This document shows positions 1,549 to 54,776 of a stretch of 64,000 bases of DNA, in pieces. Within the stretch, counting starts at the first letter, position 1. Every line of letters begins with the position of its first letter. Origin of the DNA: Candidatus Krumholzibacteriia bacterium (GTDB taxonomy: Bacteria; Krumholzibacteriota; Krumholzibacteriia; JAJRXK01); contig JBGPIA010000005.1 of NCBI GenBank assembly GCA_041484665.1, positions 160,001-224,000 on the forward strand, read 5' to 3'. Both the position numbers and the translations under genes were made by a program. The notes beneath the pieces are model-generated. The model was given only the letters and a program-made list of their open reading frames with translations. It was not told the origin of the DNA and searched no databases.

Positions 1549-2328
1549 CTAGTCGAACCGCGCCTTCACGCTGCCCCACGAGGCGGCGGGAGTGGGCACT
1601 TCCCCGCACACGTCATGGTTGCGCTGCCGAAGCGCCGCAGTGAGAACAAGCTCGACCGCGCTCACGATCTGCGGCTTTACGGAGTCCAGAACGAAATTCC
1701 CGAGGACTGCGTACAGCTGCAGGCATGCGTCGGCGGATTGGAGTTCCGTCGGGCTCAGACTCAGCTGCACGCTCCCGGGGACCAGTTTGTACAGGGTGCA
1801 GGCGCCCAACGGCTCTGTGCGGACCCATGCGCCGATGGTAGCGGCGCCCAACGCGTAGCCATCGGCGGCCACCGTTCCGGAGCCGAACTCGCCGCAGAAG
1901 GGAGTCTTCTGCCGGACGGTGTGCACATCCAGGAAGAGCTGGGCCGCCGTGACCGAAAACTGGATCGAGTCCCCCGCGCTGCCAACGACGTCCACCACCG
2001 CCGCGTTCTGGCAACCGTAGAGATTGAGGGGCGCAGTGGCCGTCGCCGCCGGGGGGGCGGTAGGATTCGGCGGGGCGCAGAAGGCGAATCCGACGAGCGA
2101 CGCCTCGAACTGCACTCCGTTGAATTGGCCGCTGACCGTCCCCGTGATTTCGTTGCCCTGCAGGTTGTTGAGGGCGGTCTGCAGGTCGTCGGCGAAGCTG
2201 GCTACGGCGCTGTCCGGGGGCAACGCGCCGGCCGCGCCGCACGCTGCCAACGCCGCCAGCGCCAACGCCGCCGCCCGCAGCACCAACATGCCTCGCCGCG
2301 CCCGGGCCGCGTGTGGGAGCTTGCGCAT
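1549..2328 (-). CDS. Secreted Cys-containing hypothetical protein with C-terminal VP-x4-SWGSVKARFD tail
   Basis: ATG 2328 after GAGGAG; basic then hydrophobic signal region; several Cys; ends CGEVPTPAASWGSVKARFD. Confidence 0.75.
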   Translation of the reverse strand: MRKLPHAARARRGMLVLRAAALALAALAACGAAGALPPDSAVASFADDLQTALNNLQGNEITGTVSGQFNGVQFEASLVGFAFCAPPNPTAPPAATATAPLNLYGCQNAAVVDVVGSAGDSIQFSVTAAQLFLDVHTVRQKTPFCGEFGSGTVAADGYALGAATIGAWVRTEPLGACTLYKLVPGSVQLSLSPTELQSADACLQLYAVLGNFVLDSVKPQIVSAVELVLTAALRQRNHDVCGEVPTPAASWGSVKARFD

Positions 2329-2442
2329 CTCGGTCTCCTCGCTGCGCCAGGGCGCTGGAAGGGGGACCACGCTCCAGCTTGCATCGAGCATAGACGGCCG
2401 CGTGTCCCCACCGCAAGCTCGGGGCGGCCGTGCGCAGCGTCC

Positions 2443-3504
2443 TCAGGGCTCGAACGCCGTCTCCAGGCATGCCTGGGCGCCGCTGCTCAGGGTCAGCGTC
2501 GTGCCCTCTGCGACCTCTTTGTTCACCAACGCCAGCGCCACGGCGCCGGGGCCGTCGATGCGCTCGACAGCAGCCGCGATCCACCCGGTCGCTCGCCCGT
2601 CGTACAGCAGCTCATCGCCGGGCGCGGGTGCAGGGGAGAGTGCGCTTACCAGCACGCGCCGCCGCCGCACCTTGTCGTAATTGGCCAGACGCGCCACGAC
2701 CTCCTGCCCGATGTAGCAGCCCTTGGTGAAGGAGACGAACGGCGCGAGCCCGGCCTCCAGCGGATTGAGCGTGTCGCCCAGCTCGGGGCCCGGCCGCAGG
2801 CGGCCGTGCTCGATGCACCACTGGAGATAGGCGCGCTCGCCCGTGACAGCGCCGCCGCGCTCGCGCACGGCACCCGCCGCGCAACGCGCGAGCTCGCCTG
2901 CGTGCGCGGCGTGAAGCGCGACCGCATGGAGGTGCTGGGACCACGGCGCGGGCTCGCGCAGCAGCAAAGCGCCCGCGTTGCTCGCGTGGGCGAACCCGCC
3001 CGGCTGCGGCACCGGGCAGCCGAGCGCTCCTGCGACCACCTCTGCGGCCCCATCGCCGACTGCCAGGAGCGCCACCGCGTCCGGCTGCCGCTCGACCTGC
3101 ACGTCTTCGAGGATCACGTAGCGCTCGATCCACTGCGCCAGCGCCGCGCCCCGCCCCTCGCCGGCCAGCAGCCACATCCGGTCGTCCCCGGGGGCGGCGA
3201 CCGCCAGGTCCACGATGCGCCCCTTGTCATTGGTGAACACCAGCGCAGCCGCCTGGCCGGGCTGCAGGCCACGCACATCGGAGGCGCAGAGCCGCTGGAG
3301 GAGATCAACCCGGTCGGCTCCCCGGATCACCAGCAGATCCCCCGTTCCCCGGTCCCGCAGGGCCAGTCCCGACCGAAGGGCGCGCAGCCCCTCGAGCGCG
3401 GGCGCGACCTCCAGCGCCGGCCGTCCCGGCGTCTCGGCCTGGCTGCGGCCGGGCCCCAGCGGGCTACCGAACGGGGTCTGATCGCCCATCTGCTTCGAGT
3501 CCAA
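2443..3504 (-). CDS. ygfZ: YgfZ/GcvT-family folate-binding Fe-S repair protein
   Basis: KGCYIGQEVVARL signature; start uncertain. Confidence 0.9.
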   Translation of the reverse strand: MDSKQMGDQTPFGSPLGPGRSQAETPGRPALEVAPALEGLRALRSGLALRDRGTGDLLVIRGADRVDLLQRLCASDVRGLQPGQAAALVFTNDKGRIVDLAVAAPGDDRMWLLAGEGRGAALAQWIERYVILEDVQVERQPDAVALLAVGDGAAEVVAGALGCPVPQPGGFAHASNAGALLLREPAPWSQHLHAVALHAAHAGELARCAAGAVRERGGAVTGERAYLQWCIEHGRLRPGPELGDTLNPLEAGLAPFVSFTKGCYIGQEVVARLANYDKVRRRRVLVSALSPAPAPGDELLYDGRATGWIAAAVERIDGPGAVALALVNKEVAEGTTLTLSSGAQACLETAFEP

Positions 3505-3536
3505 CGGGTTGTGCCGCCGTCCGCCCGCGGCCTGCC

Positions 3537-3565
3537 TTGACGCCCCTCGGGGGTGAAACTACACT
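3537..3565 (+). promoter_or_regulatory. Sigma70-type promoter for iscS-iscA
   Basis: TTGACG (3537-3542), 17 nt spacer, TACACT (3560-3565). Confidence 0.65.
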
Positions 3566-3732
3566 GATTCGTAGTGATTTCGTGACCCGGCCGCCACGGC
3601 AGCGGGGCTGCATGGCGTCGGGCCGCCCGGTGAGCCCGCCGAGACCTCACCTGGCGCGTGGAGCACGCGGCGGGGTCAGTCGGAAGGGCGCGCCCAACCA
3701 GCGCCCGGACCATCCGGTCAGCGGAATGGATC

Positions 3733-4911: not shown

Positions 4912-4926
4912 CCGCAGGAGGAACCG

Positions 4927-5256
4927 ATGATCGTCGTGACTGACAAGGCGGCCGCCGCGGCCCTGGCGGCTCTGCGGGAAGAGGGCGCCGACCCGTCGCA
5001 GCGGTTCCTGCGGGTGGCGATCCAGGGGGGCGGCTGCTCCGGGCTCAACTACAAACTCAACTTCGACTCCCAGCCGCGCGAGGGGGACGAGGTCCTGACC
5101 CTCGGCGAGCTGCGGGTGGCCGTCGACCCCAAGAGCCTGCTCTTCCTCGAAGGCATGACGCTGGATTACTCGGCGGGTCTCAACGGCAAGGGGTTCGTCT
5201 TCAACAATCCCAACGCCACGGGCACCTGCGGCTGCGGGCAGTCGTTCAAGGTCTGA
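4927..5256 (+). CDS. iscA: A-type Fe-S carrier (IscA/HesB)
   Basis: GGGCSG and TCGCGQSF motifs; AGGAGG RBS. Confidence 0.95.
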
Positions 5257-5457
5257 CCGCCCAGGGCCACGGCAATTGCGCGACCCATCTGGGGCGCAGA
5301 CCAACGCCGGGCACGACAGGAGGCGCGCGGATGCGGGCCCCCTGCGCGTATGTGGTCCTTGCGTGCCCCGCGAGCGGGTGAAACAATCATCGAGGCCACC
5401 GGTCGGCTCCCTCTCGCCGGGGTGCACAGTCGACGTACCCAGCCCAATGGAGTGACC

Positions 5458-24377: not shown

Positions 24378-27167
24378 CTACTCGACCTGCAGCACCGAGT
24401 TGCGCCCGCCGAACCCGTCGGAGACCGCCGCGGGGTTCTCCGGGTCGGCGATCCAGTGGTCGCCGTCGATGGCGAGCTTGTACTCGAAGCGACCCGGGCC
24501 CAGGCGTACCTCGGCGCGCCAGCGCCCGTTCCCCAGGGCGGCCATGGGCGTCGCTGCGGGAGACCAGCCGTTGAAACTCCCCACCACCGCCACCGTCCGG
24601 GCAGCCGGGTTGACGTAGGTGATGGGCACCAGGCGCACCTCCGTGCGTGCCCGGTTCTCCGGGGTCGCGGGCCGCGCGGGCTGCCCGCTGATGTAGGCGT
24701 AGCCGTCCATGAGGTGCTCGAGTTCGTTGCTCACCGAGTGCAGCGGCCCCTGGTCGACGTCAGCGAACTGCAGGCGGAAGCGGGCGCGGCGGCCGGCGCC
24801 ACCGGCGACCTTCACCAGCACGTAGTTGGTTCCGATCGCGAAGCCAGCGTCGGCTTGGGTCTGCCGGCGAAAGCCCTCCAGCCGCGCCACCTCCTCACCG
24901 GCGATCCGCACCAACGCGGGGGAGTCGCACTCCAGCCGGACGGTGGCTTCGCGCGTGGAGGTGGTCAGCGCCGTGAGGGCGTACCACACGCCAGCCGGCC
25001 CGGACGCGTCGGCCAGGGTGATCCAGCCGTCCTCCTCCAAACGTGTCGATGGCAGGTGCTGCCAGTGCGCCGGCCCCGCTGGCGCCGGGTAGCCCTCCCC
25101 CAGATCGATCGCTCCGTCGGGGCCCTGGCGCGCGTTGATGGCCGCGGCCATACCGGTCCAATCATTGGGCCCGGCCGCTGGGCTCTCGAAGGGACCGATC
25201 CACAGCCACCGGAAGTGGACCGGCACCTGCGTTTCCAGAGTCGAGATCAGGCGCGTCGCGTCGTGGAAGCGCCACTGCACCGCGACCAGCCCCGGCGCGA
25301 GCAACGGCGGCGGCGCGAGCTGCAACGTCCAGGTCCGCTGCTCGCCCGGGCCGAGCGTGAAGTCGGCTTCGCTGGCGGGACTCACCACCCACTCGGTCGG
25401 CGCCATCAGCTCGAAGCGGCCAGCCTGCTCGTTCTCGACCTGGTTGGCGATCTCGACCTCGCAGACGGTCCGCGGCGGGCTGGCCTCCTCGGCCACGATC
25501 CGGACGCTCGCGCGCAGCGCCTCGACGACGGAGGTGCCGGGCGCGTAGGCCGGGCGCCCGTGGGGGCCGCGCAGGACCAGCCACCAGAATCCGGTCCGGT
25601 CGGGCAGCGGCGGGAGCTGCCCGCGCAGCTCCAGGGTGTCTTGCAGCACGACCGCCACGGGCGAGGCCGCCATGAGCGTCGTGCCGTTGGTCCAGGTCGC
25701 CGACCAGCTCCCTTGCGCCGCGTTGACAGCGTCGGCGCCGGAACGGTACCGCACGTGGAGCAGCGGGCTGGCACCTCGCGCCGTCACGTGCGGGAGTACT
25801 TCCGCCGCGTAGGCCGCGTCCACCGTCGGGCGCAGCAGCAGCTGGATCGCGTCCTCCGCCAGGCGGTCCAGCGCGTCGCCCATCCACTGCGCGAGATCCT
25901 CGTCGCGCCAGCCGAAGGCCGCGGCCTTCGCATCGCCGTTGGGCGAGCGGGTGGTCATGCGCCCCGCCGCGAAGCGGTTGCGGCGCTCGACCGGATTGAA
26001 CGACCGCCACTGCTCCGCGCGGGCGACCAGCACGTGGGCCAGCGAGTCCGCGCCCGTCCCCGCGCCTGGATCAGGCCGCTGCATCAGTGCCAGCGTCTCG
26101 TCGCGCTCCAGCGGCTGCAGCACGAGCGCGCGCGACAACAGCTCCACGATGGACCGGGTGCGCAGCAGCGGCTGCCACCGCCCCGGCCGCGCCGGAGCCG
26201 TCACCGCCGTTACGGTGGCGCCCGCGCTCGTCGTCGCGCCCCCGCCCAAGCCCTTGCTCGAGACGCCCCCCGTCGCGGCCCAAAGCCGCAGCGGGACCCG
26301 ATCCCGATTGGGCAGGCCGTGGGCGCGCAGGGCTTGATCGGTCAGCTCGACGAGCTCTGGATCGTAGAGGGCGGCGATCGCCGTGCGCAGCAAGGCGGCC
26401 GTCTGCTCCGCGGTGAACAGACTGAGCTCGGGATGCCGCGGCCAGTCGGCCTTGGGGTCCAGCCGCCGGATCGCGCGGCCGGTGCGCTGGGCCTGCGAAA
26501 CGCTGACATCGTTGCCGACCAGCAGCGACTCGGCGGTCGCGGTCGCCCGCGCGTGCACCGTGGGCGCCTCGAGCGCCAGCGGCAGGAGGCAACCCAGCGA
26601 CAGCGGCTCGTCGATCAACCGGCCCGCGGTGTCCAGCGCGGCGTACCCGCCAGTCTGCGGATCGTACAGCTGCGCCATCATGTGGCGGTGGACGAGCGCG
26701 CGCTCCCGCCACCAGACCAGCGCGTCGAAGAAGTACTCCCGCCGCGCGGCCATCTCGGCTAAGGCCTCCGCGTAGACCAGCTGCAATCCCGGCAGGACCG
26801 CTGCGGTCCGGCACCCTTTCAGACCTGCAGCGCGCAGCACGCGTGCGTCCTCGCGCCACAGCCCGCCGTTCTGGGGGTCGAGGTGGCGGCCCAGCCAGAA
26901 ATGCCACCGCGCCAGAGCGCGGTAGGTGTTCTCATCGGGGGGCAAGCCGGCCCGCTCGGCCTCGGTCACCGCCGCCGCGAGCAGCGGCAGCTGGGCCGTG
27001 TTGAAGCTGCGGGCCATGGTGTCCAGGTCGCCGGCAGCACCCTGCGCGCTGGTGACGAAGAATGGCCGCAGGGCAGAGAGATCCTGCGCCGGCGCCGCCA
27101 CGGCCGCACCGCTGAAGAGGGCCAGCGCCAGGGGAATAGCTGGGAACAGACGGATCGCGCGCGCCAT
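24378..27167 (-). CDS. Large secreted multidomain protein with a C-terminal glycogen-binding CBM48/AMPK-like domain
   Basis: Signal peptide; [15 protein letters not shown] segment resembling (alpha/alpha)6 glycosidases; Ig-like middle; C-terminal [38 protein letters not shown]. Confidence 0.75.
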
Positions 27168-28748: not shown

Positions 28749-29822
28749 ATGTTCGCACCCCGATCGTTGGCCGCGGACGCGCGGCCGGGTCGCACGCCGC
28801 TGCTGCCTGCCCCGGCCCTGCCGCTGGCCTGCGCCCTGCTGCTTGCGCCGGCCTTGCTGCTCGCGCCCGCGCTGAGGCCGGCTCCGGCGCTCGCCTCCAA
28901 GCCCGTCGATGCCAAGGTCCTCGCGGCCAAGGCGGTCGTGCAGGACGGCGGCTATGCGCCGCGGCCAGGCGCGTTCGCCACGGTCTTGACCGAGAGCGAG
29001 CCCAACGACACTCCGGCCACCGCCAACCCCGTTGCCGTCGGGGAGTCGATCGAGGCGGCGCTCACCAGTGGCGACGTGGACTGGTTCCGCGTGACGGCAA
29101 CTGCCGGTGAGTACTTCACCCTCTCCACCTCCGCGCGCGACGGGAGCTTCACCGACACGGTGATGCGCGCCGTGGGGTCCGATGGCGCTACCCAGCTCGC
29201 GACGGACGACGATGCGGGCGCCGGTCTGTTCTCCGCGCTGGAGCATTTCCTCTGCCCGGCCGGGGGAGTCATCTACGTCGAGGTCCGGCACTTCAGTCAA
29301 AGCGGGCAGGGCGCGTATCTCTTCGGCGTCGAACCCGGCAGGCCGCCTCTGCCGGCTCCCGCCAACGATGCCCGCGGTGGCGCCGTCGTCGTCCAGTGCA
29401 CTAGCGTGACCTCCGGCACCACTCGCGGGGCGGCCAGCGACGTGAGCAACGACGACGTCGCATGCGTTCCCTACGCGCCCAACGGGGGCGACGTGTTCTA
29501 TCGCGTGGCAGTTCCTTACAGCTACCAACTCACGGTCCAGGCCTCCACGGCGACCAGCACCGACCCCTCGCTTTACCTGCTCGTGGACTGGGGGGCGGGG
29601 GCCCTCACCTGCATCGCCGGCTCCGACGCCGGGTTCGTCGACGAGGACGAGTTGGTCAGCTTCGTCAACGACCACCCGGGTGATCCCCCGATGGTCACGA
29701 TCGTCGTGGACAGCTGGAGCGCGCGGAGCGAGGGCGAGTTCACGTTGGCGGTCTCGTGCGAGTTCCTGGTCCCCATCCAGCAGTCCACGTGGGGCGCGCT
29801 GAAGGCCGTATACGGGGAGTGA
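28749..29822 (+). CDS. Secreted PPC-like (pre-peptidase C-terminal) beta-sandwich protein with STWGALKAVY tail
   Basis: AGGAG RBS; signal peptide; ESEPND..DVDWF..DTV..DDDAG.GLFS; PAND..GDVFY..DPSLYL; ends CEFLVPIQQSTWGALKAVYGE. Confidence 0.8.
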   Translation: MFAPRSLAADARPGRTPLLPAPALPLACALLLAPALLLAPALRPAPALASKPVDAKVLAAKAVVQDGGYAPRPGAFATVLTESEPNDTPATANPVAVGESIEAALTSGDVDWFRVTATAGEYFTLSTSARDGSFTDTVMRAVGSDGATQLATDDDAGAGLFSALEHFLCPAGGVIYVEVRHFSQSGQGAYLFGVEPGRPPLPAPANDARGGAVVVQCTSVTSGTTRGAASDVSNDDVACVPYAPNGGDVFYRVAVPYSYQLTVQASTATSTDPSLYLLVDWGAGALTCIAGSDAGFVDEDELVSFVNDHPGDPPMVTIVVDSWSARSEGEFTLAVSCEFLVPIQQSTWGALKAVYGE

Positions 29823-30245: not shown

Positions 30246-31256
30246 ATGCGTGCATCTTGGTCACGGTTGATCCTCGCAGCGCTGTGTCTGGCTCTATTTG
30301 CGACGGCCGCGTTTGCCGAGGACGAATTGCAGTTCAAGGCCCGTATCGACAAGCTGGCGGAAGCCGCTCGGTTCACGCCGGATTTCAGCATTCCGCTGGC
30401 CGTCATCAACGAGACCGAGCCCAACAACTCGTGCGCCGCGCCCGATCCGGCGGCCATGCTCGCCGGCCAGATCAACGCGACGCTCTCACCGGCAGGCGAC
30501 GAGGACTGGTTCTACTTCAACGGCGCGGCCGGCCAGTGCCTGACGCTGGCCACCGCCTCGGTGGCCGGCAGCACGACCGACACGCAACTCTACCTGTACG
30601 ACGCAGCTAGCTGTGGCAGCCCGGCTGCCTATCTGGTCTGGGACGACGACGCAGGCCCCGGCCTGTTCTCGTTGATCAGTGCCTTCCCGCTGCCCGCGGC
30701 GGGCACGTACTACGTCCGGGTCAAGCACTACAGCGCCTCGGGGACGGGAGCCTATCTCCTCACGACAACGCTGGCTGCTTGCCCCTCGGCTCCGCCCAAC
30801 GACCTGTGCGCCCATGCGATCCCGGTGCACTGCAACTCGCTGGTGCAGGGCACGACGGAGAACGCGACCAACAACATCACCGAGAATGTGTCCAACCCGT
30901 GCGTCATCGGTTCCTCGGCCGCCGGACCGGACGTGTTCTACTCGATCTGCGTGCCCAACGGCGTCCAGCTCCAGACGGTGACGACTCCGTTGTCGATCTG
31001 GGATCCGGCGATCTGGTTCGTTACCAACTGCAATGATGCGACGACCTGCGTCGCCGGGACCGATGTGGGATTCTCGGGCGATCCCGAGACTCTCGACTGG
31101 ACCAACGACACCGGCGCCGAGGTCTGCCTGTACATCGTGCTGGACAGCTGGACGGCCAGCCAGGTCGGTGCCTTTACCATCGAGATCGGCTGCCAGCAGG
31201 TCGTCCCGGACGTCAAGTCGAGCTGGGGCACCATCAAGGCGCACTACAAGAACTAG
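30246..31256 (+). CDS. Secreted PPC-like protein, paralog of 28749-29822, with SSWGTIKAHY tail
   Basis: GGAGG RBS; signal peptide; ETEPNN..DEDWF..DTQLYLY..DDDAGPGLFS; PPNDLC..GPDVFY..DPAIW; ends CQQVVPDVKSSWGTIKAHYKN. Confidence 0.85.
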   Translation: MRASWSRLILAALCLALFATAAFAEDELQFKARIDKLAEAARFTPDFSIPLAVINETEPNNSCAAPDPAAMLAGQINATLSPAGDEDWFYFNGAAGQCLTLATASVAGSTTDTQLYLYDAASCGSPAAYLVWDDDAGPGLFSLISAFPLPAAGTYYVRVKHYSASGTGAYLLTTTLAACPSAPPNDLCAHAIPVHCNSLVQGTTENATNNITENVSNPCVIGSSAAGPDVFYSICVPNGVQLQTVTTPLSIWDPAIWFVTNCNDATTCVAGTDVGFSGDPETLDWTNDTGAEVCLYIVLDSWTASQVGAFTIEIGCQQVVPDVKSSWGTIKAHYKN

Positions 31257-31708: not shown

Positions 31709-33032
31709 ATCACGGGTTCCGTCCCTTCCACCCCGTCGCGCCGGTGGGCCCTGCGGGCCGTGCTCGGCCTGCTGCTGATCGCGCTGCCGGCGCTGGGTGC
31801 GGGCGGGCCGGCGCGCGCGGGGTTGCTCGCGGCCGCGGGTTTGCCGGAGCTCGCCGGGCCGTAGGACCAGCGGGCGCCCGTGGGCAGCATCGGGGTGTAC
31901 TTCGACCCTGCCTACAGGCAGCAGAGCAGCGCCGTCGCGGTGCCATTCGCCCCGTTCAACTTCTATGTCGTCGCCAAGGGGCTGCAGCAGCCGGGAGTGC
32001 TGGACGGCATCGGCGCCTACGAGTGCGCGGTCCAACCGCCCGCGGGGTCGTTGGTCGCCACACACACGCTGCCGGGGAGTTACATCGATCTCGGCGCCGG
32101 TGATGACAACTGGATCGTCGGCACGGGCGGCTGCCGCTCGTTCGTCGACAACGGTGGCGACACCTACCTGCTCGTCACCTACAGCTGCCTGTTCTTGGCA
32201 GCGCCCGGCCAGAACCTGCCGGTCAGAGTGACGCCGGCTGCGCCGACCAGCTTCACGCCCGCCGGGCCGGGATTCCTCGTTGTCAACAGCGGTGACGCGG
32301 TCTGGATCCTGCGCCGTACCGTGGGCCTGCCCTAGGGTGCGGCTCCGAGCGCGGACGCCGCGAACCCCCCGTGCGCGTCTGGTCCAACGCGGGGAGCAGC
32401 TGGCACTGGTCATCGACAGGGCGGGTGCGCTCTACGGCCTCGATCTCGAGCTGCGCTACGATCCGGTGCGTCTTGCGCTGCCGGAGCTGGGCGAGCCGGG
32501 CGCCGGCCTGCGCGTGGAAGCCCAGCGAGCCGACGGGACCCGTGCCGTGGGCTGGGCAGCGGCACAGCCGCTGGGGGGAGCGTCCGGCGTGATGACCGTC
32601 GTGCTGCCCGCCGTGGTGCGCGGCGCGCATGACGCGCGGCTGGAGGTGGCGTCGCTCTGGGGCTACGACGCGCAGGGCACCAGGGTGCCGATCGCGTGGG
32701 ATGGGAAGCCCTGGGGTTGGCTAGCCCCTGCGGCAGCCCCCCTGCCCACGCCGCGCACGGAGCGGCTGCTCTCCAGCGCGCCGAACCCCTTCAATCCGAG
32801 CACGACGCTGCGCTTCGAGCTGTCCAGCCCGGCGCGGGCCGTGCTGGAGATCTACGACGCCAGCGGCGCGCGCGTGGCAACGCTCTTGGTCGAGGCGCGC
32901 CCGGCGGGCGTGGGGGAGGTCATGTGGAACGGAACGGACGCGAGCGGCCGCAGCGTGGCCAGCGGCGTCTATTTTGCGCGCCTGCGGGCCGCGGCCCAGA
33001 ACCACGTCTTGCGCATGGTGCTGGTCAAGTAG
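31709..33032 (+). pseudogene. Disrupted secreted surface protein (signal peptide, beta domain, dockerin-like fragment, cohesin-like domain, FlgD/T9SS-like C-terminal domain)
   Basis: Signal-like RRWALRAVLGLLLIAL; in-frame TAG 31862-31864; same frame continues IGVYFDP...VNSGDAVWILRRTVGLP; TAG 32333-32335 and frame change into LYGLDLELRYDP...PNPFNPST..IYDASG..WNGTDASGRSVASGVYFARL..MVLVK; no clear start codon. Confidence 0.6.
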
Positions 33033-33143: not shown

Positions 33144-34559
33144 CTAGTCATAGGTGCGGTGCGTGATGACCGTGGTCTCGCCGGCGCGGATCTCCACGCG
33201 CTGGAAGGTCGCCGTCTGCGCCACGGCCCCGTCGCCGTCGAGCACCTCGACCACGACGCTGTGCACGCCCGCGGGCAGGCGCATGCGCGCCAGATGGATG
33301 CGGTCGGGCAAGAGCGTCCAGCTGCGCGTGTCGGCGCGCTCGGTCGCCGCGGCGAACACATTGGCGAGAAAGCCGGCGGCCTCGCCCTGCTTCTTGGCTT
33401 GCTTGGTCAGTGCGTACTTGGCGATCGCCCGGGCAATCGTCTTCAGCAGGCGGGTGCCCTGCCCCTCCTCGAAGGTGAGCCGTGCGACCGCCGAGACGTC
33501 CTCGGCCAGTACGGTCTCGCTGGCCCGCTCGCCCACGCGCAGCCGCGCGCCGACCAGGCGGCTGGGCGTCTGGACCAACTCCGGCATCGCTACCACCAGC
33601 CAGTAGTCCAGCTCCACCGTGTCGAGATCGATGAGCAAGGCACCCCGATGGCCGCGCGTCGCCACGGAGGAGAACAGCTGATCGCTGCTCTTGTCCCGGT
33701 CGGTCTTCAGGATGGGGAACTGCAGCTGCTGCTCCTCGAAGTGGGCAACGAAGCCGCTCTCGTAAACCAGCAACAGCTCGCCCTCGCCCGAGCACAGCGG
33801 GAGAGCCTCCAGCGAGTCCACCCCGCCCTTGGCGGTGAGCTCGGCCGCCTCGTCGCCGAAGCCGAACGCGCGCGCCCAACGCGCGTGGTCGGCGAGCAGC
33901 TGCGGGGGTGCCGGTATCCCCCACAGCGAATCGTACTCGCCGTAGGCCGCCTGGGCGCGGCGGGCGGCCACCAGGGCCGCGTTGCCGTCGCCGTCCTGCG
34001 CGTACAGCATCCCGGCGATCCATTCCACGCAGGCGTCGTCGGTGTACCCTTTCTTGTTCGCGCGCAGGTCCTCGAGCACCTGCAGGCGCTGGCCGACCCG
34101 CCGGCACTCCACCAGCGCGTCGTCGGTCTCGTCCAACGCCAGGTAGTTCAGCGCGCCGTATAGGTGCAGGAGCACCTGCTCGTGCGGGTAGCCGCTGTAG
34201 GCCAGCTTGCCATCGTTGGTGAGGAACGCGGCTACGCCGCGGCTGACGCTCTTGGTGTAGAGGTCGTCGATCTTCTGCTCGGCGAGCTGCAGGGCCTGGT
34301 TGCTGGGCTCGAACTGGCCGTCGTAGTGCAGCAGCAGCCCGCGCTCGAGCAGGTTGAGAACGTCGGGGTCCTTGCCCCCGCGCTCCTTCAGCAGCTCGAG
34401 CGCGCCGGCCAGGTCGCCGGTGGCCACCTTGCCGCGCACCTGCTTGGCTCCGGTGGCGTACGTGGCGCACCCGTTCAGGCACGCGGGCGCGCAGGCGAGC
34501 GCGAGCAACAGGAGGGCGCGGGGACGCGAGCCGCCCGCGCGCCCGTGCGCCGGGATCAT
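33144..34559 (-). CDS. COG3014-like TPR lipoprotein
   Basis: Lipobox LNGC; LERGLLLH, YSGYPHE, ALNYLAL..ALVE, ERADTRSWTLLP. Confidence 0.8.
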   Translation of the reverse strand: MIPAHGRAGGSRPRALLLLALACAPACLNGCATYATGAKQVRGKVATGDLAGALELLKERGGKDPDVLNLLERGLLLHYDGQFEPSNQALQLAEQKIDDLYTKSVSRGVAAFLTNDGKLAYSGYPHEQVLLHLYGALNYLALDETDDALVECRRVGQRLQVLEDLRANKKGYTDDACVEWIAGMLYAQDGDGNAALVAARRAQAAYGEYDSLWGIPAPPQLLADHARWARAFGFGDEAAELTAKGGVDSLEALPLCSGEGELLLVYESGFVAHFEEQQLQFPILKTDRDKSSDQLFSSVATRGHRGALLIDLDTVELDYWLVVAMPELVQTPSRLVGARLRVGERASETVLAEDVSAVARLTFEEGQGTRLLKTIARAIAKYALTKQAKKQGEAAGFLANVFAAATERADTRSWTLLPDRIHLARMRLPAGVHSVVVEVLDGDGAVAQTATFQRVEIRAGETTVITHRTYD

Positions 34560-34569
34560 CGCGACGGCT

Positions 34570-35208
34570 CTACGGCTTGTACTTCCCGCGGGCGATGTAC
34601 TTCTTGATCTTCTTGTCGCCGATCCAGGCTTTCTCGTTGGTCTGGATGTCGATCAGCTCGAGGTTGGTCTGGTAGAACACGACCTTCTTGCCGCCCTCCT
34701 CGTCCTCGATGGCGTTGATCGTGCCCATCAGCATGTAGTCGGCGCCCTTCTCCTTGCCGAACTTCTTGACCGTCTCGGGATCGGAGAAGTCGGCCTGGTC
34801 CGTGCGCTCGGCGCGCACGTCGCCCCGCTCCGTCGAGCTGGCGACCACACCCACCAGGCCGCTGTTCACGAAGGCCTGCTCGAGGTCCTTGGTGAAGGCC
34901 TCGGCGGCGATGTGCTCGGCGCTGCGATTCTTCACCGTGCCCACGATTACAACGGGCTTCTTGCCCGCTCGGGCGGCGTCGAAGCGCGCCAGCCACGGCC
35001 GGTTGAGGCTGTCCTTGATCATCTCCTGCGAGACCATCTGCGAGTCGGTGTCGTTCCAGCGCCCACTGAGATCGACCTGGGTGTTGGTGTCGAGGCGGGT
35101 GACTTGCTTGCCTGCGCTGCAGCCAGCGAGCGTGGCCGCCAGCGCCACGCCCAGGCCGCACAGGACGAGATTCCGGGGATTCCGTCGGCGCGCGCCTTGC
35201 GCGAACAT
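34570..35208 (-). CDS. LpoB-family (penicillin-binding protein activator-like) lipoprotein
   Basis: GGAGGT RBS; lipobox LAGC; DLSGRWNDTD, NRSAEHI, GADYML.GTI, KKIKK. Confidence 0.85.
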   Translation of the reverse strand: MFAQGARRRNPRNLVLCGLGVALAATLAGCSAGKQVTRLDTNTQVDLSGRWNDTDSQMVSQEMIKDSLNRPWLARFDAARAGKKPVVIVGTVKNRSAEHIAAEAFTKDLEQAFVNSGLVGVVASSTERGDVRAERTDQADFSDPETVKKFGKEKGADYMLMGTINAIEDEEGGKKVVFYQTNLELIDIQTNEKAWIGDKKIKKYIARGKYKP

Positions 35209-43745: not shown

Positions 43746-46343
43746 TCAGCGCACCATGGTCAGCGCGCGCGATTGCGCCGTGCCCCATCCCTCGAGCCGG
43801 CACCAGTAGATGCCCGACGCCGCGGGCCGTCCTGCGTCGTCCAGTCCGTTCCAGACCACGGAGTGCGCGCCGGCCGGCAGGCTCGCGTCCAGCAGCGTGC
43901 GCACGAGCCGGCCGCGCAGATCGAAGACCCGCAGCCGCACGGCGCCACTCGCGTAGAGCGTGAATGGAAGCGTCGTCGCCGGATTGAACGGGTTGGGCAC
44001 GTTGACCGCCAGCACGAAGGGCGCGTGGCGCGCCGGGGCCGGCGGCGCGGCGGTCGTTGCCGGCGGCAGGTACACCACGGTCAGGCGCGTGCCCGCCCCG
44101 CCGGCGGCGAAGTCGTCCCATCCGTAGAAGCTGCCGGGCTCCAGCGTCCCTTTGCTCGCGACCAGCCCCAGGAAGTTCCCGGGCGCGTATCCGGGCCGGC
44201 TCACGAACGCCTGGACCAAGGGCGAGAGATCGGGGGAGACGTAGTCGTCGCCGGCCGTCCAGCGCCCCGCTGCGGGCCAGGTCAAGGTCGGCGCGGCGAG
44301 CGGATGGTGCCCGATCAGGTCGCCGACGAGGCCGTTGGTGAAGGGCGCCGCGTCGTCCACGTCGTACAGATGGATCGCCATGCCGCCCGCGTCGCTCGCG
44401 CCCTGCAAGGGGCAGGCCCGCACGGTCAGGAAAGCGTGCTGGATGGTCGCACCTTTCGGGACGTCGAGGGCGAACTCCATGGCGCTGGTCGCCTGGTCGG
44501 GATCGTTGCTCGCGATGTCGTACGGCTCCCCCGCGGCGTATCCCGAGCTGCGCACCTCCGACCGCGCCGACATCGCGTCGCGGTTGTCGGCGGCGATCGT
44601 GTAGGTGCGCGCGACGAGCTGCGGCTGGGCGGGGTCGGGGAGCACCGCGACGCGCTGCTCGCCGCGCAGTCCCGTCGCGTCGCTCGCCCAGGCGATGATC
44701 TCGTACCAGATGACCGCCAGGCTCTCACCATGGGAGCCGGCGACGAAGCTGCCGCCCTGGCCTGTCATGTCCTGGATCACGGGGTGCACGTGGTTGAGGT
44801 GGTGCAGGAGCACGGTCCAGTGCAGCTGACTCGCTGGGATCGCCCCCTCCTCGAGGTCGCGGGCGGAGCCGGCGAACGCGATGACATGGTCCACGATGAA
44901 CAGCGAGCTGTCGGCCGGCGTGAGGACGGTCACGTCGGGCGGCAGGTTTCCCACGGTGATCGTCATGGGCGGTGACGTGTTCGAGCCGCCGCGGCCGTCG
45001 GTGACGGTCAACGTGGCTGCGTAGGTGCCGTTGACGGTGTACGTGTGCGTGGGGTTCTTGGCGATGGACGGCGACGAGACATCCCCGAAGCTCCACTGGT
45101 AGCTCAAGGCGTCGCCATCCACGTCGTAGGAAGCACCGCCGTTGAAGCTCACCGCCAGAGGCGCGTAGCCGGCCGTGGGGGTGGCCATTGCGACGGCGGT
45201 CGGGTTGCGGTTGGCTGTTCCGGTGTAGAAGATCCGCCGCATGGCCCCCGGTGCGTAGGTGCAGTAGTAGAGCGCACCGTCGGGACCCAGCTCCAGGTCG
45301 ACCGGCCCGTACAGCAATCCGGTCGCTGCGGTCTGGATCCAGGGGTAGGTGACGCTGACCACCTGGTTGTGCGAATCGAGCACGATGCGGCCGAGGTGGC
45401 CGCGCGAGTGGTCGAAGAAGAAGAAGTTCCCGGAGTACTCCGCGGGAAAGTTGCTGCCCTGGTAGAAGACATTGCCCACGATTGCCGCGGAGCCCAGGCT
45501 GTGATCGTAGGAGAAGATCGGATCCACGAAGGCCGGGTTGGGCGCGCTGGCGATGCCTTCGACCACGGGCCAGCCGAAGTTCGCCCCCGGAGGCCCCGTG
45601 TCGACCTCTTCCCAGCTGTTGTAGCCCACGTCGCCGATGAAGGGGATCCCCGTGCCCGGCTGGATGGAGAATCGGAACGGGTTGCGCAGGCCCCACTGGT
45701 AGATCTCGGGCCGCACGCCTGCCACGCCCACGAACGGGTTGTCCGAAGGTATCGTCCCGTCGGGGTTCACCCGCAGCAGCTTGCCCTCCAGTCGCGAGCG
45801 ATCCTGGGGATACGGTGAGAGCCAGCCGGTGTCGCCCGTCGAGACGAACAGCCGGCCGTCGGGCGCGAAGCGGACGCAGCCACCGACGTGAAAGCCGTCA
45901 CCCGCGGGGATCGGGCCCAGCACCACGTGCTCGCTCGCCGGATCGATCGTGTCGCCGTTCACGGTAAAGCGCGACAACTGGTTGGCATTGCCGGTCTCGT
46001 TGCCCGTGGATGGCGTATACACCAGGTACAGGTACGGTGGGTTGGGGAACCCAGGCGCGAGCTCCATCCCCAGCAGGCCCTGCTCATCGAAGCGCTCCAC
46101 GCTCAAGGTCAGCATCGGCGTGGGGAGCAGCTGCCCGTTCTCGAACACCACCAGGTTGCCGCTCTGCTCGCCCACGAGGATCCGGCCGTCCGGGGTGAAG
46201 ACGAAGCAGGTCGGGATGGTCAAGCCGTTGATCACCAGCTCGTCGTTGAAGCCGGGCGGATAGACCTGGCCCGAACCTGGCTGGGGGGAGGCCAGCAGAC
46301 AGGCGACGGCGACGGCCAAAACGGCTCGGTACGGCGGGCGCAC
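43746..46343 (-). CDS. Secreted glucose/sorbosone dehydrogenase-like (PQQ-type beta-propeller) protein with PKD and FlgD/T9SS-like C-terminal domains
   Basis: EQGLLG, H.GG.V.F.PDG.LFVSTGD, GLRNPFR, GANFGWP; PKD YQWSFGD..HTY..GTY.ATLTVTD; PNPFNP..FDLRGRLV..WNG.D..GRPAASGIY. Confidence 0.88.
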   Translation of the reverse strand: MRPPYRAVLAVAVACLLASPQPGSGQVYPPGFNDELVINGLTIPTCFVFTPDGRILVGEQSGNLVVFENGQLLPTPMLTLSVERFDEQGLLGMELAPGFPNPPYLYLVYTPSTGNETGNANQLSRFTVNGDTIDPASEHVVLGPIPAGDGFHVGGCVRFAPDGRLFVSTGDTGWLSPYPQDRSRLEGKLLRVNPDGTIPSDNPFVGVAGVRPEIYQWGLRNPFRFSIQPGTGIPFIGDVGYNSWEEVDTGPPGANFGWPVVEGIASAPNPAFVDPIFSYDHSLGSAAIVGNVFYQGSNFPAEYSGNFFFFDHSRGHLGRIVLDSHNQVVSVTYPWIQTAATGLLYGPVDLELGPDGALYYCTYAPGAMRRIFYTGTANRNPTAVAMATPTAGYAPLAVSFNGGASYDVDGDALSYQWSFGDVSSPSIAKNPTHTYTVNGTYAATLTVTDGRGGSNTSPPMTITVGNLPPDVTVLTPADSSLFIVDHVIAFAGSARDLEEGAIPASQLHWTVLLHHLNHVHPVIQDMTGQGGSFVAGSHGESLAVIWYEIIAWASDATGLRGEQRVAVLPDPAQPQLVARTYTIAADNRDAMSARSEVRSSGYAAGEPYDIASNDPDQATSAMEFALDVPKGATIQHAFLTVRACPLQGASDAGGMAIHLYDVDDAAPFTNGLVGDLIGHHPLAAPTLTWPAAGRWTAGDDYVSPDLSPLVQAFVSRPGYAPGNFLGLVASKGTLEPGSFYGWDDFAAGGAGTRLTVVYLPPATTAAPPAPARHAPFVLAVNVPNPFNPATTLPFTLYASGAVRLRVFDLRGRLVRTLLDASLPAGAHSVVWNGLDDAGRPAASGIYWCRLEGWGTAQSRALTMVR

Positions 46344-46440: not shown

Positions 46441-46453
46441 GGTCCGCCCTTCC

Positions 46454-48295: not shown

Positions 48296-48350
48296 GACAT
48301 CCGATGCGGTGGGGCGGCGCCGGATGCCACCCGCCAAAGGAGTGACGACG

Positions 48351-48965: not shown

Positions 48966-49035
48966 ACGAGAGTGGTCGGCCGCTCGGCGCCTTCGGCGCG
49001 CGACGGCAGTGGGGCACCGGACTTCGGCGGGTGTC

Positions 49036-50520: not shown

Positions 50521-53037
50521 ATGAGCGACGAGACCGATCGCACCCCGCCGGCGCAGAGCCAGGCGGAGCGTCGCGCGAAGCTGCCGCTGCTGCCGCTGCG
50601 CGACGTGGTCATCTTTCCCGGCGCGGTCCTGCCGTTGTTGGTGGGACGGGAGAAGTCGATCCGCGCGCTGAAGGTGGCCTCCGAGGGCGACAAGCTGCTG
50701 GTGGTGACCGCCCAGAAGGAGGCGGACGTCGCCGACCCCACCGAGGAGGACCTCTACCGCATCGGCACCATCGTGCGCGTGCACCAGATCGCGCGCCTGC
50801 CGGACGGCACCACGCGCATCCTGATCGAGGGGCTCGGCCGCGCCCGCATCCGCCGCTTCTTCGACCGCTCCGAATACCTCGAGGTGCGCGTCGAGGAGCT
50901 GGAGACCGCCTTGGCCGAGCAGAGCACCGAGTTCGAGGCGCTCTCGCGCCAGCTGCTGGACTCCTTCACCGAATACGTGGGGCTCAACCGTCGCCTGACC
51001 GATGAGGTGGCGGTCAGCGTGGGCCACATCGAGGACGTCGAGCGCCGCGTGGACACGATGTGCGCCTACCTGATGGCGCGCGTCAGCAGCAAGCAGCGCC
51101 TGCTGGCCGAGACCGACCTGATGCGCCGCATGCGCGAGCTGGCCCACGTGCTGCACCGCGAGGTGGAGATCCTGCGCGTCGAGCAGCGCATCGAGGGCGA
51201 GGTCAAGAAGCAGGTCGAGAAGGGGCAGAAGGAGTTCTACCTCAACGAGCAGCTGCGGGCCATCCGCAAGGAGCTCGGCTACGGCGCCGACGACGACGAC
51301 GAGATCGAAGAGCTGGTGCGCAAGATCGAGGACACCGGCATGACCGACGAGGCGCGCGACGTCGCCCTCAAGGAGGTGGGGCGCCTGGCGAAGATGGCGC
51401 CCATGTCACCCGAGTCCTCGGTCATCCGCAGCTACCTCGAGGTGCTGCTGGCGCTGCCGTGGAAGGCGCGCACCGACGACCAGCTCGACACGCGCCGCGT
51501 CGCCAAGCAGCTCGACCTGGACCACTTCGGCCTGGAGAAGGTCAAGGAGCGCATCCTGGAGTTCCTGAGCGTGGTGAAGCTCAGCGGACGGCTGCAGGGC
51601 TCGATCCTCTGCCTGGTGGGGCCGCCGGGCACCGGCAAGACGAGCCTGGGCCGCTCCGTGGCCGAGGCGATGGGGCGCAAGTTCGTGCGCGTCTCCTTGG
51701 GCGGGGTGCGCGACGAGGCGGAGATCCGCGGGCACCGGCGCACCTACATCGGTAGCCGCCCGGGACGGATCCTGGAGGGGATGCGCAAGGCCGCCACGCG
51801 CAATCCGGTGTTCCTGCTGGACGAGATCGACAAGCTGGGGGCCGATTTCCGCGGCGACCCCAGCGCGGCGCTGCTGGAGGTGCTTGACCCCGAGCAGAAC
51901 CGCAACTACAGCGACCACTTCCTCGAGATCCCGTTCGATCTCTCCGAGGTCTTCTTCATCTGCACGGCGAACGTGCTGCACCAGATTCCGTCCGCGCTGG
52001 AGGATCGCATGGAGATCATCCGGCTGCCGGGGTATCTCGATCACGAGAAGGTGGCCATCGCGCGCGACTTCCTGCAGCCCAAGCTGCTGCGCAACCACGG
52101 CCTGGAGCGCGCGCGCTTCTCCATCAGCGACCAGGCCATGCTGGACGTCATCAACCTCTACACGCGCGAAGCAGGCGTGCGCGACCAGGAGCGGCAGCTG
52201 GCCAAGGTCTGCCGCAAGGTCGCGCGCGCAAAGGCCGAGCGGCGCCGCGTGCCGCGCACGATCCATCGCGGCAACCTGCACCGTTTCCTGGGGCCGCCCA
52301 AGTACCTGCACCGCCGCGTCGACCAGGAGCCCGAGGTGGGCGTCGTCACCGGCCTGGCCTGGACGCCGGTGGGGGGCGAGATCCTCGAGATGGAGGTCGC
52401 GATCCTGCCCGGCACCGGCAAGCTGGTACTGACGGGCAATCTCAAGGAGGTCATGCGCGAGAGCGCGCGCGCGGCGCTGAGCTACGCGCGCAGCATCGTG
52501 CCGTCTTCGGCCGAGCGCCTGGCCAAGAGCGACATCCACATCCACGTGCCCGAGGGAGCGGTGCCCAAGGACGGCCCCAGCGCAGGCATCGCCATGGCGA
52601 CGGCGCTGGTGTCGGTGCTGACCGGACGCAAGGTCCGCCGCGACGTCGCCATGACGGGCGAGATCACGCTGCGCGGGCGCGTGCTCCCCATCGGCGGGCT
52701 GCCCGAGAAGGCGGTGGCGGCGCAGCGGGCGGGCTGCACGCACATCATCATTCCCAAGGAGAACGACAAGGACTACCAGGAGCTCCCGCGCGACGTGCAG
52801 AAGGGCTTGCGCTGGCAGCAGGTCAGCCGCGTGGAGGAAGTCCTCAAGCTGGCGCTCTTGCCCGAGGATGCGGAGACGCGCATCCCGCCGCAGGAGCTGC
52901 TCGAGCCCGCTCGCGAGCTCAAGGAGCACCTCGAGAAGCTGCCGCTGCTTCCCGAGCGCTCCGATCGCCCTCCGCGCCCCAAGACCGGGCCCCCGGGGCA
53001 GGCGCTGGACATTCCGCCCAAGGGCACGCCGCACTGA
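50521..53037 (+). CDS. lon: Lon protease
   Basis: LPLRD, GPPGTGKTS, IRGHRRTYIG, PKDGPSAG, MTGEITLRG. Confidence 0.98.
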   Translation: MSDETDRTPPAQSQAERRAKLPLLPLRDVVIFPGAVLPLLVGREKSIRALKVASEGDKLLVVTAQKEADVADPTEEDLYRIGTIVRVHQIARLPDGTTRILIEGLGRARIRRFFDRSEYLEVRVEELETALAEQSTEFEALSRQLLDSFTEYVGLNRRLTDEVAVSVGHIEDVERRVDTMCAYLMARVSSKQRLLAETDLMRRMRELAHVLHREVEILRVEQRIEGEVKKQVEKGQKEFYLNEQLRAIRKELGYGADDDDEIEELVRKIEDTGMTDEARDVALKEVGRLAKMAPMSPESSVIRSYLEVLLALPWKARTDDQLDTRRVAKQLDLDHFGLEKVKERILEFLSVVKLSGRLQGSILCLVGPPGTGKTSLGRSVAEAMGRKFVRVSLGGVRDEAEIRGHRRTYIGSRPGRILEGMRKAATRNPVFLLDEIDKLGADFRGDPSAALLEVLDPEQNRNYSDHFLEIPFDLSEVFFICTANVLHQIPSALEDRMEIIRLPGYLDHEKVAIARDFLQPKLLRNHGLERARFSISDQAMLDVINLYTREAGVRDQERQLAKVCRKVARAKAERRRVPRTIHRGNLHRFLGPPKYLHRRVDQEPEVGVVTGLAWTPVGGEILEMEVAILPGTGKLVLTGNLKEVMRESARAALSYARSIVPSSAERLAKSDIHIHVPEGAVPKDGPSAGIAMATALVSVLTGRKVRRDVAMTGEITLRGRVLPIGGLPEKAVAAQRAGCTHIIIPKENDKDYQELPRDVQKGLRWQQVSRVEEVLKLALLPEDAETRIPPQELLEPARELKEHLEKLPLLPERSDRPPRPKTGPPGQALDIPPKGTPH

Positions 53038-54119
53038 TGGCATCCCACCAGGTCGAGCTGGTGACGCTCGCCCCGACCCTGCGGGAGTGCCCGGCCGACC
53101 CGATTCCCGAGATCGCCTTCAGCGGGCGCTCCAACGTCGGCAAGTCCTCGCTGCTCAACCTGCTGGTGGGCCGCAAGCGCCTTGCCCACACGAGCGCGGC
53201 GCCGGGCAAGACGCAGACCCTGGTCTACTACAAGGTCGACGAGCGCTGGCACCTGGTGGACATGCCCGGGTACGGCTACGCGCGCGTGCCTACGGAAGTG
53301 CGTCGGCGCTGGACCGCCGCCGTCAGCGAGTACCTGCACGGACGCGAGCAGCTGGCGGGCCTGATCCAACTGGTGGACATCCGGGTCGGCTTCACTCCGG
53401 ACGACCGCTCGCGATTGCACGAGCTGGTCGCCCTCGACAAGCCGTTTTGCCTGGCCATGACGAAGGCCGACAAGGTGCCGCGTGCCCGGCAGGAGGAGAT
53501 CGTGGCCGGCCATCTGGCCGGGCTGAGCCTGGCACCCGACACGGGGGTGATTCTCACCTCGGCCCTGCACCACTACGGGCAGCGAGAGCTTTGGGCGTGG
53601 ATCGGCCAGGTGCTGGCGGGGCGCATCGGCCGCCCGCTTGTCCTGTCGCCTGCGCGCACGGAGGCCGTCCAACCGGCAGAGCCCCGCCCAACCCCCGCGA
53701 GACAGCCGCACCCAGGGCGCGCGCCGGGCCGCCCGCCTGGCAAGCGATTCGCGCAGCGAGTCCCGGCGCCGCGGCCGGCGGGCCGAGCCAAGGCCTCCCC
53801 AGCCCGGTCGGGCACGCAGCGATCGACCTCCGGCGGCGGCAAGGCATCGCCCATTCACCCCGGCCCGCAGCGCTTGAGGGCAGCCTACGGCAAGGGCTCC
53901 CCGGGACGGTCCGGCCCGCCGCGCTCCAGGACCGCTGACGGGAGGGGCTCGCCTTCTCGGCCGGGGCCACCGGGCCCCAAGGCAGCGTACGGGAAGGGCT
54001 CTCCGGGTCGGCCGGGGCCACGGGGCCCCAAGGCAGCCTACGGCAAGGGGTCCCCGGGTCGGTCGGGGCCGCCGCGCAGCGGCCGCGCCCGCAGCAAGGG
54101 CTCCAAAAGGTCGCGTTGA
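53037..54119 (+). CDS. engB: Ribosome-biogenesis GTPase EngB/YihA/YsxC with a long basic repeat tail
   Basis: GRSNVGKSS, PGKT, DMPGYG, TKADK; start overlaps the lon stop; about 165-aa R/P/G/S-rich extension. Confidence 0.93.
   Translation: MASHQVELVTLAPTLRECPADPIPEIAFSGRSNVGKSSLLNLLVGRKRLAHTSAAPGKTQTLVYYKVDERWHLVDMPGYGYARVPTEVRRRWTAAVSEYLHGREQLAGLIQLVDIRVGFTPDDRSRLHELVALDKPFCLAMTKADKVPRARQEEIVAGHLAGLSLAPDTGVILTSALHHYGQRELWAWIGQVLAGRIGRPLVLSPARTEAVQPAEPRPTPARQPHPGRAPGRPPGKRFAQRVPAPRPAGRAKASPARSGTQRSTSGGGKASPIHPGPQRLRAAYGKGSPGRSGPPRSRTADGRGSPSRPGPPGPKAAYGKGSPGRPGPRGPKAAYGKGSPGRSGPPRSGRARSKGSKRSR
53880..54083 (+). repeat. 51-nt (17-aa) tandem repeat x4 in the EngB tail
   Basis: AAYGKGSPGRSGPPRSR / TADGRGSPSRPGPPGPK / AAYGKGSPGRPGPRGPK / AAYGKGSPGRSGPPRSG at 53880, 53931, 53982, 54033. 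Confidence 0.92.
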
Positions 54120-54144
54120 CACCCCCCGGCCGGCTGCGTATACT
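54116..54144 (+). promoter_or_regulatory. Near-consensus sigma70 promoter overlapping the engB stop codon
   Basis: TTGACA (54116-54121), 17 nt spacer, TATACT (54139-54144). Confidence 0.8.
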
Positions 54145-54296
54145 GCAGATACGCATCACACTGGCATGCTTCTAGTTAGCTTGCCGGGGAAGGACTCCCG
54201 GGGGGCGCGTATCCGCTGCAGACCGCGCAACGGGCAGGTCGTGCCCAGGCGGAAGCGGCGGGGAAGAAAGGGCAACGCGTAGGAATCGAGGTTAGC

Positions 54297-54776
54297 GTGC
54301 TGCGGCTGCGTGCAGGGAGTGCCGTACTGGCCCTCGCTGTGGTCGTGGTGACGGTAGCGGGCCTCATCCAGGCCGCGTCGGCCACGCAGGACCAGATGTG
54401 GCGTCTCCCCGGGTTCTCCGGGGACCGGAACGGATGCCTGATCTGCCACGTCGGGCCGTCCGTTACGTCCCAAACCGTCAATCCCACCGACTGGATCAAT
54501 GCTGAGACCTCGCTCAGCTCCTTCGGGAAGGACTGGGTGCGTTCCGGCAGGACGTGGAGTGTCCCGCTCGCCGCGGGCAACTCCGACGGGGACGCCTGCA
54601 CGAACGGCTTCGAGCTGAACGACGAGAACGGAAGCTGGCAGTACAATCCCAACGGTCCGCAGATCGCGCGCCCGGCGGGAAGCAACCCCAGCGACGCCAC
54701 GGACTGCGCCTTGCCGCTAAACGAGCAGAGCTGGGGCGTGTTGAAGGCCTTCTTCCGGGAAGACTTCCGCCGCTAG
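54297..54776 (+). CDS. Secreted temptin-like monoheme c-type protein with SWGVLKAFF tail
   Basis: GAGGT RBS with GTG; signal peptide; CLICH; FGKDW..W...LA..NSDGDACTNGFEL.D..G.W; ends CALPLNEQSWGVLKAFFREDFRR. Confidence 0.75.
   Translation: MLRLRAGSAVLALAVVVVTVAGLIQAASATQDQMWRLPGFSGDRNGCLICHVGPSVTSQTVNPTDWINAETSLSSFGKDWVRSGRTWSVPLAAGNSDGDACTNGFELNDENGSWQYNPNGPQIARPAGSNPSDATDCALPLNEQSWGVLKAFFREDFRR

Follow-up and report, generated by a model that had tools for sequence, protein, structure and literature searches.

The 64,000-nucleotide window analyzed here (contig JBGPIA010000005.1, positions 160,001 to 224,000, of the Candidatus Krumholzibacteriia bacterium assembly GCA_041484665.1) encodes four secreted proteins that end in the same kind of short peptide tail. 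We find that this tail is a real, widespread and portable C-terminal module on unrelated exported proteins. It works like the C-terminal labels used by type IX secretion systems (T9SS) or in PEP-CTERM sorting, yet it is a member of neither family. In the host genome the tail never occurs together with a T9SS-type C-terminal domain (CTD), it replaces the CTD in paralogous proteins, it follows a cleavage-like triplet, and in Poribacteria-like fusions it lies shortly before a CTD; we therefore tie it to the T9SS. The reading we favor, with confidence that is about evenly balanced, is that of a short linear T9SS-linked sorting signal read by a module of SprA, PorV-family barrels and PorU. A preliminary description of the window had proposed an undescribed system built around the tail. 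Its portable C-terminal module is retained here, while the conserved Cys and the separate machine are not: the evidence instead favors the T9SS already encoded in these genomes.

The four tails have the coordinates, strands and frames originally assigned to them, and the bodies of their proteins are also as first described. Tail 1 (VP-x4-SWG-S-V-K-A-R-F-D, then stop; 1549..1608, minus strand; position-specific scoring matrix score 40.7) closes a Cys-rich secreted protein of about 259 aa with an uncertain start and a lipobox-like LAAC (1549..2328, minus strand), for which no Pfam or NCBIfam family was found. Tail 2 (VP-x4-TWG-A-L-K-A-V-Y-G-E, then stop; 29757..29822, plus strand; score 40.9) and tail 3 (VP-x4-SWG-T-I-K-A-H-Y-K-N, then stop; 31191..31256, plus strand; score 45.4) end two paralogous secreted proteins with a PPC domain (PF04151), encoded at 28749..29822 (plus strand, start uncertain) and 30246..31256 (plus strand, 336 aa), which are identical at 107 of 274 aligned residues. 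Tail 4 (LP-x4-SWG-V-L-K-A-F-F, then six more residues; 54705..54776, plus strand; score 28.8) belongs to a Temptin_C-like secreted protein (PF24784; 54297..54776, plus strand) with one CxxCH, whose gene has an engB-like and a purA-like gene on either side. When all six frames of the window were scanned, five motif matches were returned, namely these four tails and one internal match in a non-coding frame. Among the 30 of 49 PPC-family matches that were examined, 21 carry the tail pattern and seven a tail that looks degenerate by eye; of the other two, one is embedded in a longer CTD-bearing protein and one is cut off. All six homologues found for the Temptin_C-like protein likewise end in the tail.

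The host genome (5.45 Mb in 54 contigs, about 70% G+C, 93.65% complete) yielded 3,973 genes with our own gene caller. Across this gene set, 40 matches to the strict motif [ST]WG-x-[VLIM]-[KR] were counted; 38 of them fall among the last 20 residues, positions that make up 5.2% of all residues, and two elsewhere, which confirms the C-terminal enrichment by the proteome scan that had been suggested as a check. In a raw six-frame scan, 47 of 88 motif matches lay 16 residues or fewer from a stop, compared with 10-19 of 54-70 for reversed and permuted motifs. An iterated position matrix collected 65 C-terminal members; for the final tail set, a weak member without the upstream Val-Pro was removed and one with the motif 28 residues from the end was included, which again gives 65. 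Tail-bearing genes thus represent 1-2% of the genes of the host genome, and the bodies of the 65 proteins fall into 44 unrelated families. The expected co-occurrence with signal peptides was also seen: 51 of the 65 tail proteins passed a crude hydrophobic-stretch test used in place of SignalP, as did 147 of the 207 proteins with a CTD and 915 of the 3,701 others (25%). Tail proteins are small (median 221 aa, maximum 421 aa), and a predicted transmembrane stretch of any kind is present in only three of them, in agreement with the earlier statement that the tail has no transmembrane helix.

The consensus in the host genome is [VIL]-P-x4-[ST]-[WFI]-G-x-[VLI]-K-[AS]-[LR]-[YF], with the Gly and the Lys each present in 63 of 65 tails and the distance from Trp to the C-terminus ranging from 8 to 28 residues. 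Two features attributed to the tail on the basis of the four window examples did not hold. Only 15 of 65 tails have a Cys placed 3-5 residues ahead of the Pro (background 6% per three residues), and we rejected it as part of the signal. An amphipathic helix is not established either, since the hydrophobic moment is 0.41 at 110 degrees (helix) and 0.43 at 170 degrees (strand), and two AlphaFold models, both of low confidence in the tail stretch, have no helix there. One of the two, a monomer of a tail protein, was uninformative (mean predicted local distance difference test (pLDDT) 57.8), with the tail drawn as a strand at about 53.

The module extends well beyond the host. An exact DNA pattern for the core motif was found in 151 of 151 Krumholzibacteriota genomes (1-81 copies, compared with 0-2 for a reversed control) and in 61 of 61 genomes of the Eisenbacteria phylum (1-95 copies). 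A stricter DNA pattern, applied to one genome per species, gave 76 loci whose titles name Eisenbacteria, Krumholzibacteria and Latescibacteria, along with a few other labels that are probably loose. A profile search of 8,000 candidates of 75-2,000 residues returned 87 hits with a median length of 231 and a maximum of 515; in every one, 9-14 residues lie between the motif and the end. Furthermore, a longer variant, G-K-L-[AT]-T-T-W-[GA]-x-[VLI]-K, matched at least 122 metagenome stretches. Among 80 of these, the proteins bearing it have signal peptides and a length of about 260 residues, and its position is almost without exception C-terminal. Ten proteins were looked up, and three of the nine protein clusters found are tied by NCBI names to Ca. 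Poribacteria, tail-only proteins of the variant being placed there. This variant mostly ends 1-3 residues after the Lys, without the final aromatic residue. Within one orthologous tail family of nine members from two phyla, the W, G and K are invariant while the spacer drifts.

Overall, no single core tail protein is common to the low-count genomes. A lamin-tail-domain family, also present in the host genome, was found as a tail protein in all eight low-count Eisenbacteria-phylum genomes examined, and is possibly a core substrate. Among eight pattern hits in IMG/VR viral contigs, three are true tails, two of them placed after a textbook T-G-I triplet.

The tail is apparently undescribed. The 47 tails that were isolated matched no Pfam or NCBIfam model, including TIGR04183, PF18962 and PF13860, and family scans of the window proteins and of 47 cargo proteins from other genomes gave no model for it. 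PDB sequences returned chance repeats only, the ESM Atlas gave no usable hit, and no description was found in the openly accessible literature searched. The tail is therefore enriched at C-termini, is not equally common in cytoplasmic proteins and coincides with no known family; each of these three points could have gone against the preliminary description.

The closest known counterpart of the tail is the FlgD-type CTD, which is carried by 207 proteins of the host genome (median 731 aa, up to 2,948). We infer from similarity and gene context that this domain is a T9SS CTD. No protein in the host genome has both a tail and a CTD. Size separates the two classes incompletely, since 39 of the proteins with a CTD fall in the size range of those with a tail. 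In a paralogue pair with 66% identity, one protein ends in the tail after the shared body and the other in the CTD, and three further tail proteins have CTD-bearing paralogues. Tail and CTD thus fill one slot at the same junction. A window example is the GSDH/PKD secreted protein at 43746..46343 (minus strand), whose CTD scores over the cut-off for PF13860 and under it for TIGR04183 (14.9 bits, cut-off 23); its paralogue at C5:31373-32638, outside the window, has a tail in place of the CTD. The two gene classes also tend to be neighbors, as 17 of 65 tail genes adjoin CTD genes compared with a mean of 6.0 and a maximum of 14 in 1,000 random draws. In the window, an open reading frame (ORF) with a FlgD-type CTD (PF13860; 32337..33032, plus strand) lies directly 3' of tail gene 3.

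In a Poribacteria-like locus (L299), tail and CTD occur within one chain. Among the top homologues of this CTD, the motif stands 12-14 residues before PNP[FS]N in 34 sequences (median length 605) of the 114 that could be scored, a fraction that is inflated because the query itself held the motif (120 homologues were listed, and six without the anchor motif were excluded). In these fusions, 3-4 residues separate the tail Lys from the first CTD strand, and the tail lies downstream of a cleavage-like triplet. An AlphaFold model of the fusion places the CTD at a pLDDT of about 90 and the tail (residues 1-28) below 50 and unpacked, so that folding of the tail onto the CTD in cis is unsupported. The best match of the modeled CTD fold is FlgD, with T9SS substrate CTDs at E-values of 2e-3 to 3e-2.

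The triplet preceding the tail has the form [TVSA]-[APDSG]-[VTIAL]. Of 66 tails of other genomes that had not been selected for Val-Pro, 45 have it at -7 to -5 relative to the Trp, whereas at ten other offsets it was found in at most three tails at nine of them and in ten at -9. A similar triplet occurs in 119 of 185 CTD linkers in the host genome (background 30%). For comparison, PT/GI is given as the T9SS cleavage consensus, with small residues usual after the cut, in PMC11969387.

Outer-membrane components of a T9SS are present. The host genome encodes SprA, a PorU over the cut-off adjoining PorV, and eight PorV-family genes over the cut-off. SprA was found over the cut-off in 61 of 61 Krumholzibacteriota genomes and five of five Eisenbacteria-phylum genomes, a PorV orthologue in 41 of 41 genomes (E 4.7e-16 to Flavobacterium johnsoniae PorV), and an adjacent PorU in 30 of 30 loci. 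Aligned to the Porphyromonas gingivalis enzyme, PorU keeps the His- and Cys-bearing motifs, which we take to be catalytic. Three PorV-family barrels are conserved, namely PorV itself, PorV2 (29/30) and a PorQ-like protein (27/30). PorV2 has no CTD gene beside it; as a lead, PorV2-like clusters include Poribacteria and Bacteroidota. One Poribacteria-like tail gene is located directly upstream of a PorV-family gene (one of 80 loci).

Most PorV-family paralogues (C3:70000-85000, C17:14000-28000 and others) lie immediately downstream of a gene whose CTD ending is atypical, in the manner of pairs of type B CTD and shuttle. A PorV/FadL-like barrel at L199:3886-5199 (C4), with a weak BamG-family match (52.9 bits, cut-off 250), is encoded in one operon together with a CTD protein and a second PorV-like gene. 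Two PorV-family loci are flanked by genes for ExbB/ExbD and GWxTD-domain proteins. Their presence, while GldM and GldN were not found, hints that the T9SS here is differently powered.

Other known readers of C-terminal labels were rejected, as the enzymes do not track the tail. Exosortase is present in 31 of 61 Krumholzibacteriota genomes and absent from all 21 of one family that includes the tail-richest genomes, as well as from the host genome, which has no TIGR02595 (PEP-CTERM) match at E-values up to 1. In three of the genomes with an exosortase, a genuine PEP-CTERM match was also seen. Sortase (PF04203) was found in none of five genomes, with positive controls, and a search for rhombosortase (TIGR03902) in five genomes gave nothing over the cut-off and ordinary rhomboids only. 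Roughly half of the phylum retains an exosortase, apparently alongside only one or two PEP-CTERM proteins, which in two genomes are encoded near the enzyme gene.

From these observations, we infer how tail proteins may be exported, cut and attached. Sec would deliver the protein to the periplasm, where it would fold. The disordered [ST]WG-x-[VLI]-K-x-x-[YF] stretch would then bind a PorV-family shuttle, the orphan PorV2 being the first candidate, and the protein would pass through SprA. The triplet, which stands 5-7 residues ahead of the Trp (10-12 in Poribacteria), would be where PorU cuts, and PorU would join the new end to a surface glycolipid; alternatively, the protein may remain bound and uncut where the cleavage site starts with Pro. 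For small, single-module cargo the tail alone would suffice, and large cargo would use the folded CTD, in Poribacteria sometimes together with the tail. Dedicated shuttles have a precedent, as an orphan shuttle in F. johnsoniae serves three orphan substrates with a type B CTD (PMC12618676). A bolder form of this proposal, which we think unlikely, would make the unstructured 15-residue peptide a complete type IX export signal on its own and add a third class to the folded types A and B. The orphan PorV2 would carry it, and the T9SS in question would be without the known PorK/L/M/N core and perhaps be driven by ExbB/ExbD-type motors.

A T9SS signal of this kind would overturn the view that the system reads only folded domains, give PorV2 a cargo and provide a very small tag for surface display. 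The tail gives an address to many hypothetical proteins, and draws attention to a reduced T9SS outside the Bacteroidota. It is present in every genome searched of two uncultured phyla, with a variant in Poribacteria, and yet has no database entry.

Several observations weigh against a T9SS-linked signal. In a profile comparison, the tail showed no similarity to the CTD (hhalign probability 0.1%). A derivation from CTD motif B therefore lacks profile support, and the G-R-x-V-R-T-L likeness between the two was seen by eye only. The shortest T9SS signals described in PMC11969387 are folded, comprise 43-55 residues and keep motifs B, D and E. In the host genome, the triplet is found in only 26 of 65 tails, Pro predominates at its middle position, and 55 of 65 tails have a Pro immediately behind the putative cut. 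Furthermore, PorU cleavage is described as sequence-independent in PMC4804311, and the triplet accordingly carries limited weight. The fusion fraction is affected by the inflation mentioned above, and no in-frame fusion of tail and CTD was found in 208 Krumholzibacteriota genomes with one exact pattern, four DNA-pattern hits having been rejected as out of frame. Tail and CTD counts correlate at a rho of 0.28, with a partial rho of 0.02 after removal of genome size (60 genomes) and 0.33 when family is also removed; co-expansion of the two was thus not seen after size correction. As all genomes compared in the phyla searched are positive for both tail and T9SS, their co-occurrence there is weak evidence. 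Searches of five genomes for GldN and GldM gave no match, and the control genomes were silent too. Finally, one clear lipoprotein bears a tail while its paralogue is without one, and one tail gene is located two genes after the end of a pilus or type II-like operon.

Some of these points would be accommodated by a non-covalent docking peptide, similar to a miniature dockerin, that binds a periplasmic or surface scaffold or carrier and is not an export signal; the cargo would be periplasmic or hitch-hike on a CTD carrier. We consider this doubtful. The near-invariant Gly and Lys in a disordered stretch fit a binding motif, many Poribacteria-like CTD proteins bear cohesin (PF00963) or dockerin (PF00404) domains, and the fusions suggest that the tail contributes something beyond the CTD. 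A tail on a lipoprotein also suits docking, as does the Pro after the putative cut, which would hinder cleavage. However, the tail in the fusions is located downstream of the triplet, where a normal cut would remove it, and it is not packed on the CTD in the model. Beside the tail genes at the 76 loci, moreover, no recurrent scaffold or dedicated neighbor gene was found, the most frequent neighbor being a homologue of a 1,619-aa CTD protein at four of them. It is improbable, in our view, that the tail is an in-plane amphipathic anchor holding small proteins on the periplasmic face of a membrane, like the C-terminal helices of PBP5 and MinD. The pattern of W, [VLI], [LR] and [YF] around a central Lys, the moment at the helical angle, the lack of a transmembrane helix and the variable distance from Trp to the end would all suit such an anchor. 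It would not explain why a triplet stands at a fixed distance upstream or why the tail occurs inside CTD linkers, neither AlphaFold model has the helix, and the Poribacteria variant mostly stops before any final aromatic residue. In addition, in-plane anchors do not usually keep each of their residues between unrelated proteins and phyla.

A different machine could also read the tail, although we give this little credence; it might be a secretin system of the type II or pilus-like kind, a chaperone of the periplasm, or a protease that is specific for the tail and controls turnover. Secretins occur in five of five genomes, below the GspD cut-off, and both the pilus or type II-like operon and the small size of the cargo, which stayed at or below 515 aa even where the search admitted 2,000, point in this direction. 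The tail gene near that operon also adjoins a CTD gene, which makes the place a general cluster of secreted proteins; the variable C-terminal extensions speak against a PDZ-type reader of free ends, and CTD exchange and fusion would be left unexplained. That the tail is a functionless leftover of CTD loss we regard as highly improbable. Its end (K-x-L-Y) resembles the CTD start in Poribacteria fusions (K-x2-3-L-Y-Q-N-Y), and an origin by truncation is conceivable, but retention in every genome searched of two phyla, the 44 families in one genome and the invariant W, G and K beside a drifting spacer argue for a function.

We also compared the tail with the closest known sorting signals. Like the T9SS type A CTD (TIGR04183/PF18962; FlgD-type PF13860 here), the tail is C-terminal and portable, is carried by Sec-exported unrelated folds, fills the same slot in paralogues and has what may be a similar small triplet upstream, with SprA, PorV and PorU in the same genomes. 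In contrast, the type A CTD is an immunoglobulin-like beta-sandwich of about 70-90 residues, while the tail has about 15 residues, is predicted to be disordered, lacks motifs B, D and E, and is limited to cargo of about 500 residues. The short CTDs of Prevotella intermedia (PMC11969387) show that cutting and glycosylation can persist when a signal becomes shorter, and their cleavage consensus resembles the tail triplet; unlike the tail, they are predicted to form a three-stranded sheet. Type B CTDs with PorP/SprF shuttles (PMC12618676) represent a second signal class with dedicated barrels that include an orphan shuttle serving scattered substrates, and several PorV-family paralogues are present here as well. 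These CTDs are domains of about 100 residues, whereas the tail is a short peptide whose genes rarely adjoin a barrel gene. With PEP-CTERM/exosortase (TIGR02595, PF09721), LPxTG and GlyGly-CTERM, the tail shares the design of a short C-terminal label on many small secreted proteins, often with a Val-Pro start, and the cargo overlaps, as some bodies resemble PepA-, ScyF- and DVUA0089-like families (below cut-off) that are sorted elsewhere by PEP-CTERM and similar signals. It differs from them by the absence of a transmembrane helix or basic cluster, by having no TIGR02595 match, and by the absence of the enzymes from tail-rich genomes.

Additional features of the window were noted. The Temptin_C-like gene has the same place, following lon and engB and preceding purA, in a second family of the phylum, and its product is the only one of the 65 tail proteins with a CxxCH. 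At 31880-33032 (plus strand), ORFs of 151 and 231 aa look like one gene split by a frameshift, either a pseudogene or an assembly error; the 151-aa ORF, which has no signal peptide, matches both tail-bearing and CTD-bearing paralogues, and the 231-aa ORF ends in the FlgD-type CTD. A 929-aa secreted protein with a CBM48-like domain at its end is encoded at 24378-27167 (minus strand), and the region 33144-35208 (minus strand) contains an LpoB-family lipoprotein gene and a neighbor of no known family. A four-gene operon at 56308-62804 (minus strand), with a family 2 glycosyltransferase and a YaiO-type barrel, is likely involved in the synthesis and export of a surface polysaccharide. Close to the end of the window, a tRNA match (63672-63735, plus strand) is followed by an ORF from 63923 that resembles a phage-type integrase by eye, marking a possible integration site.

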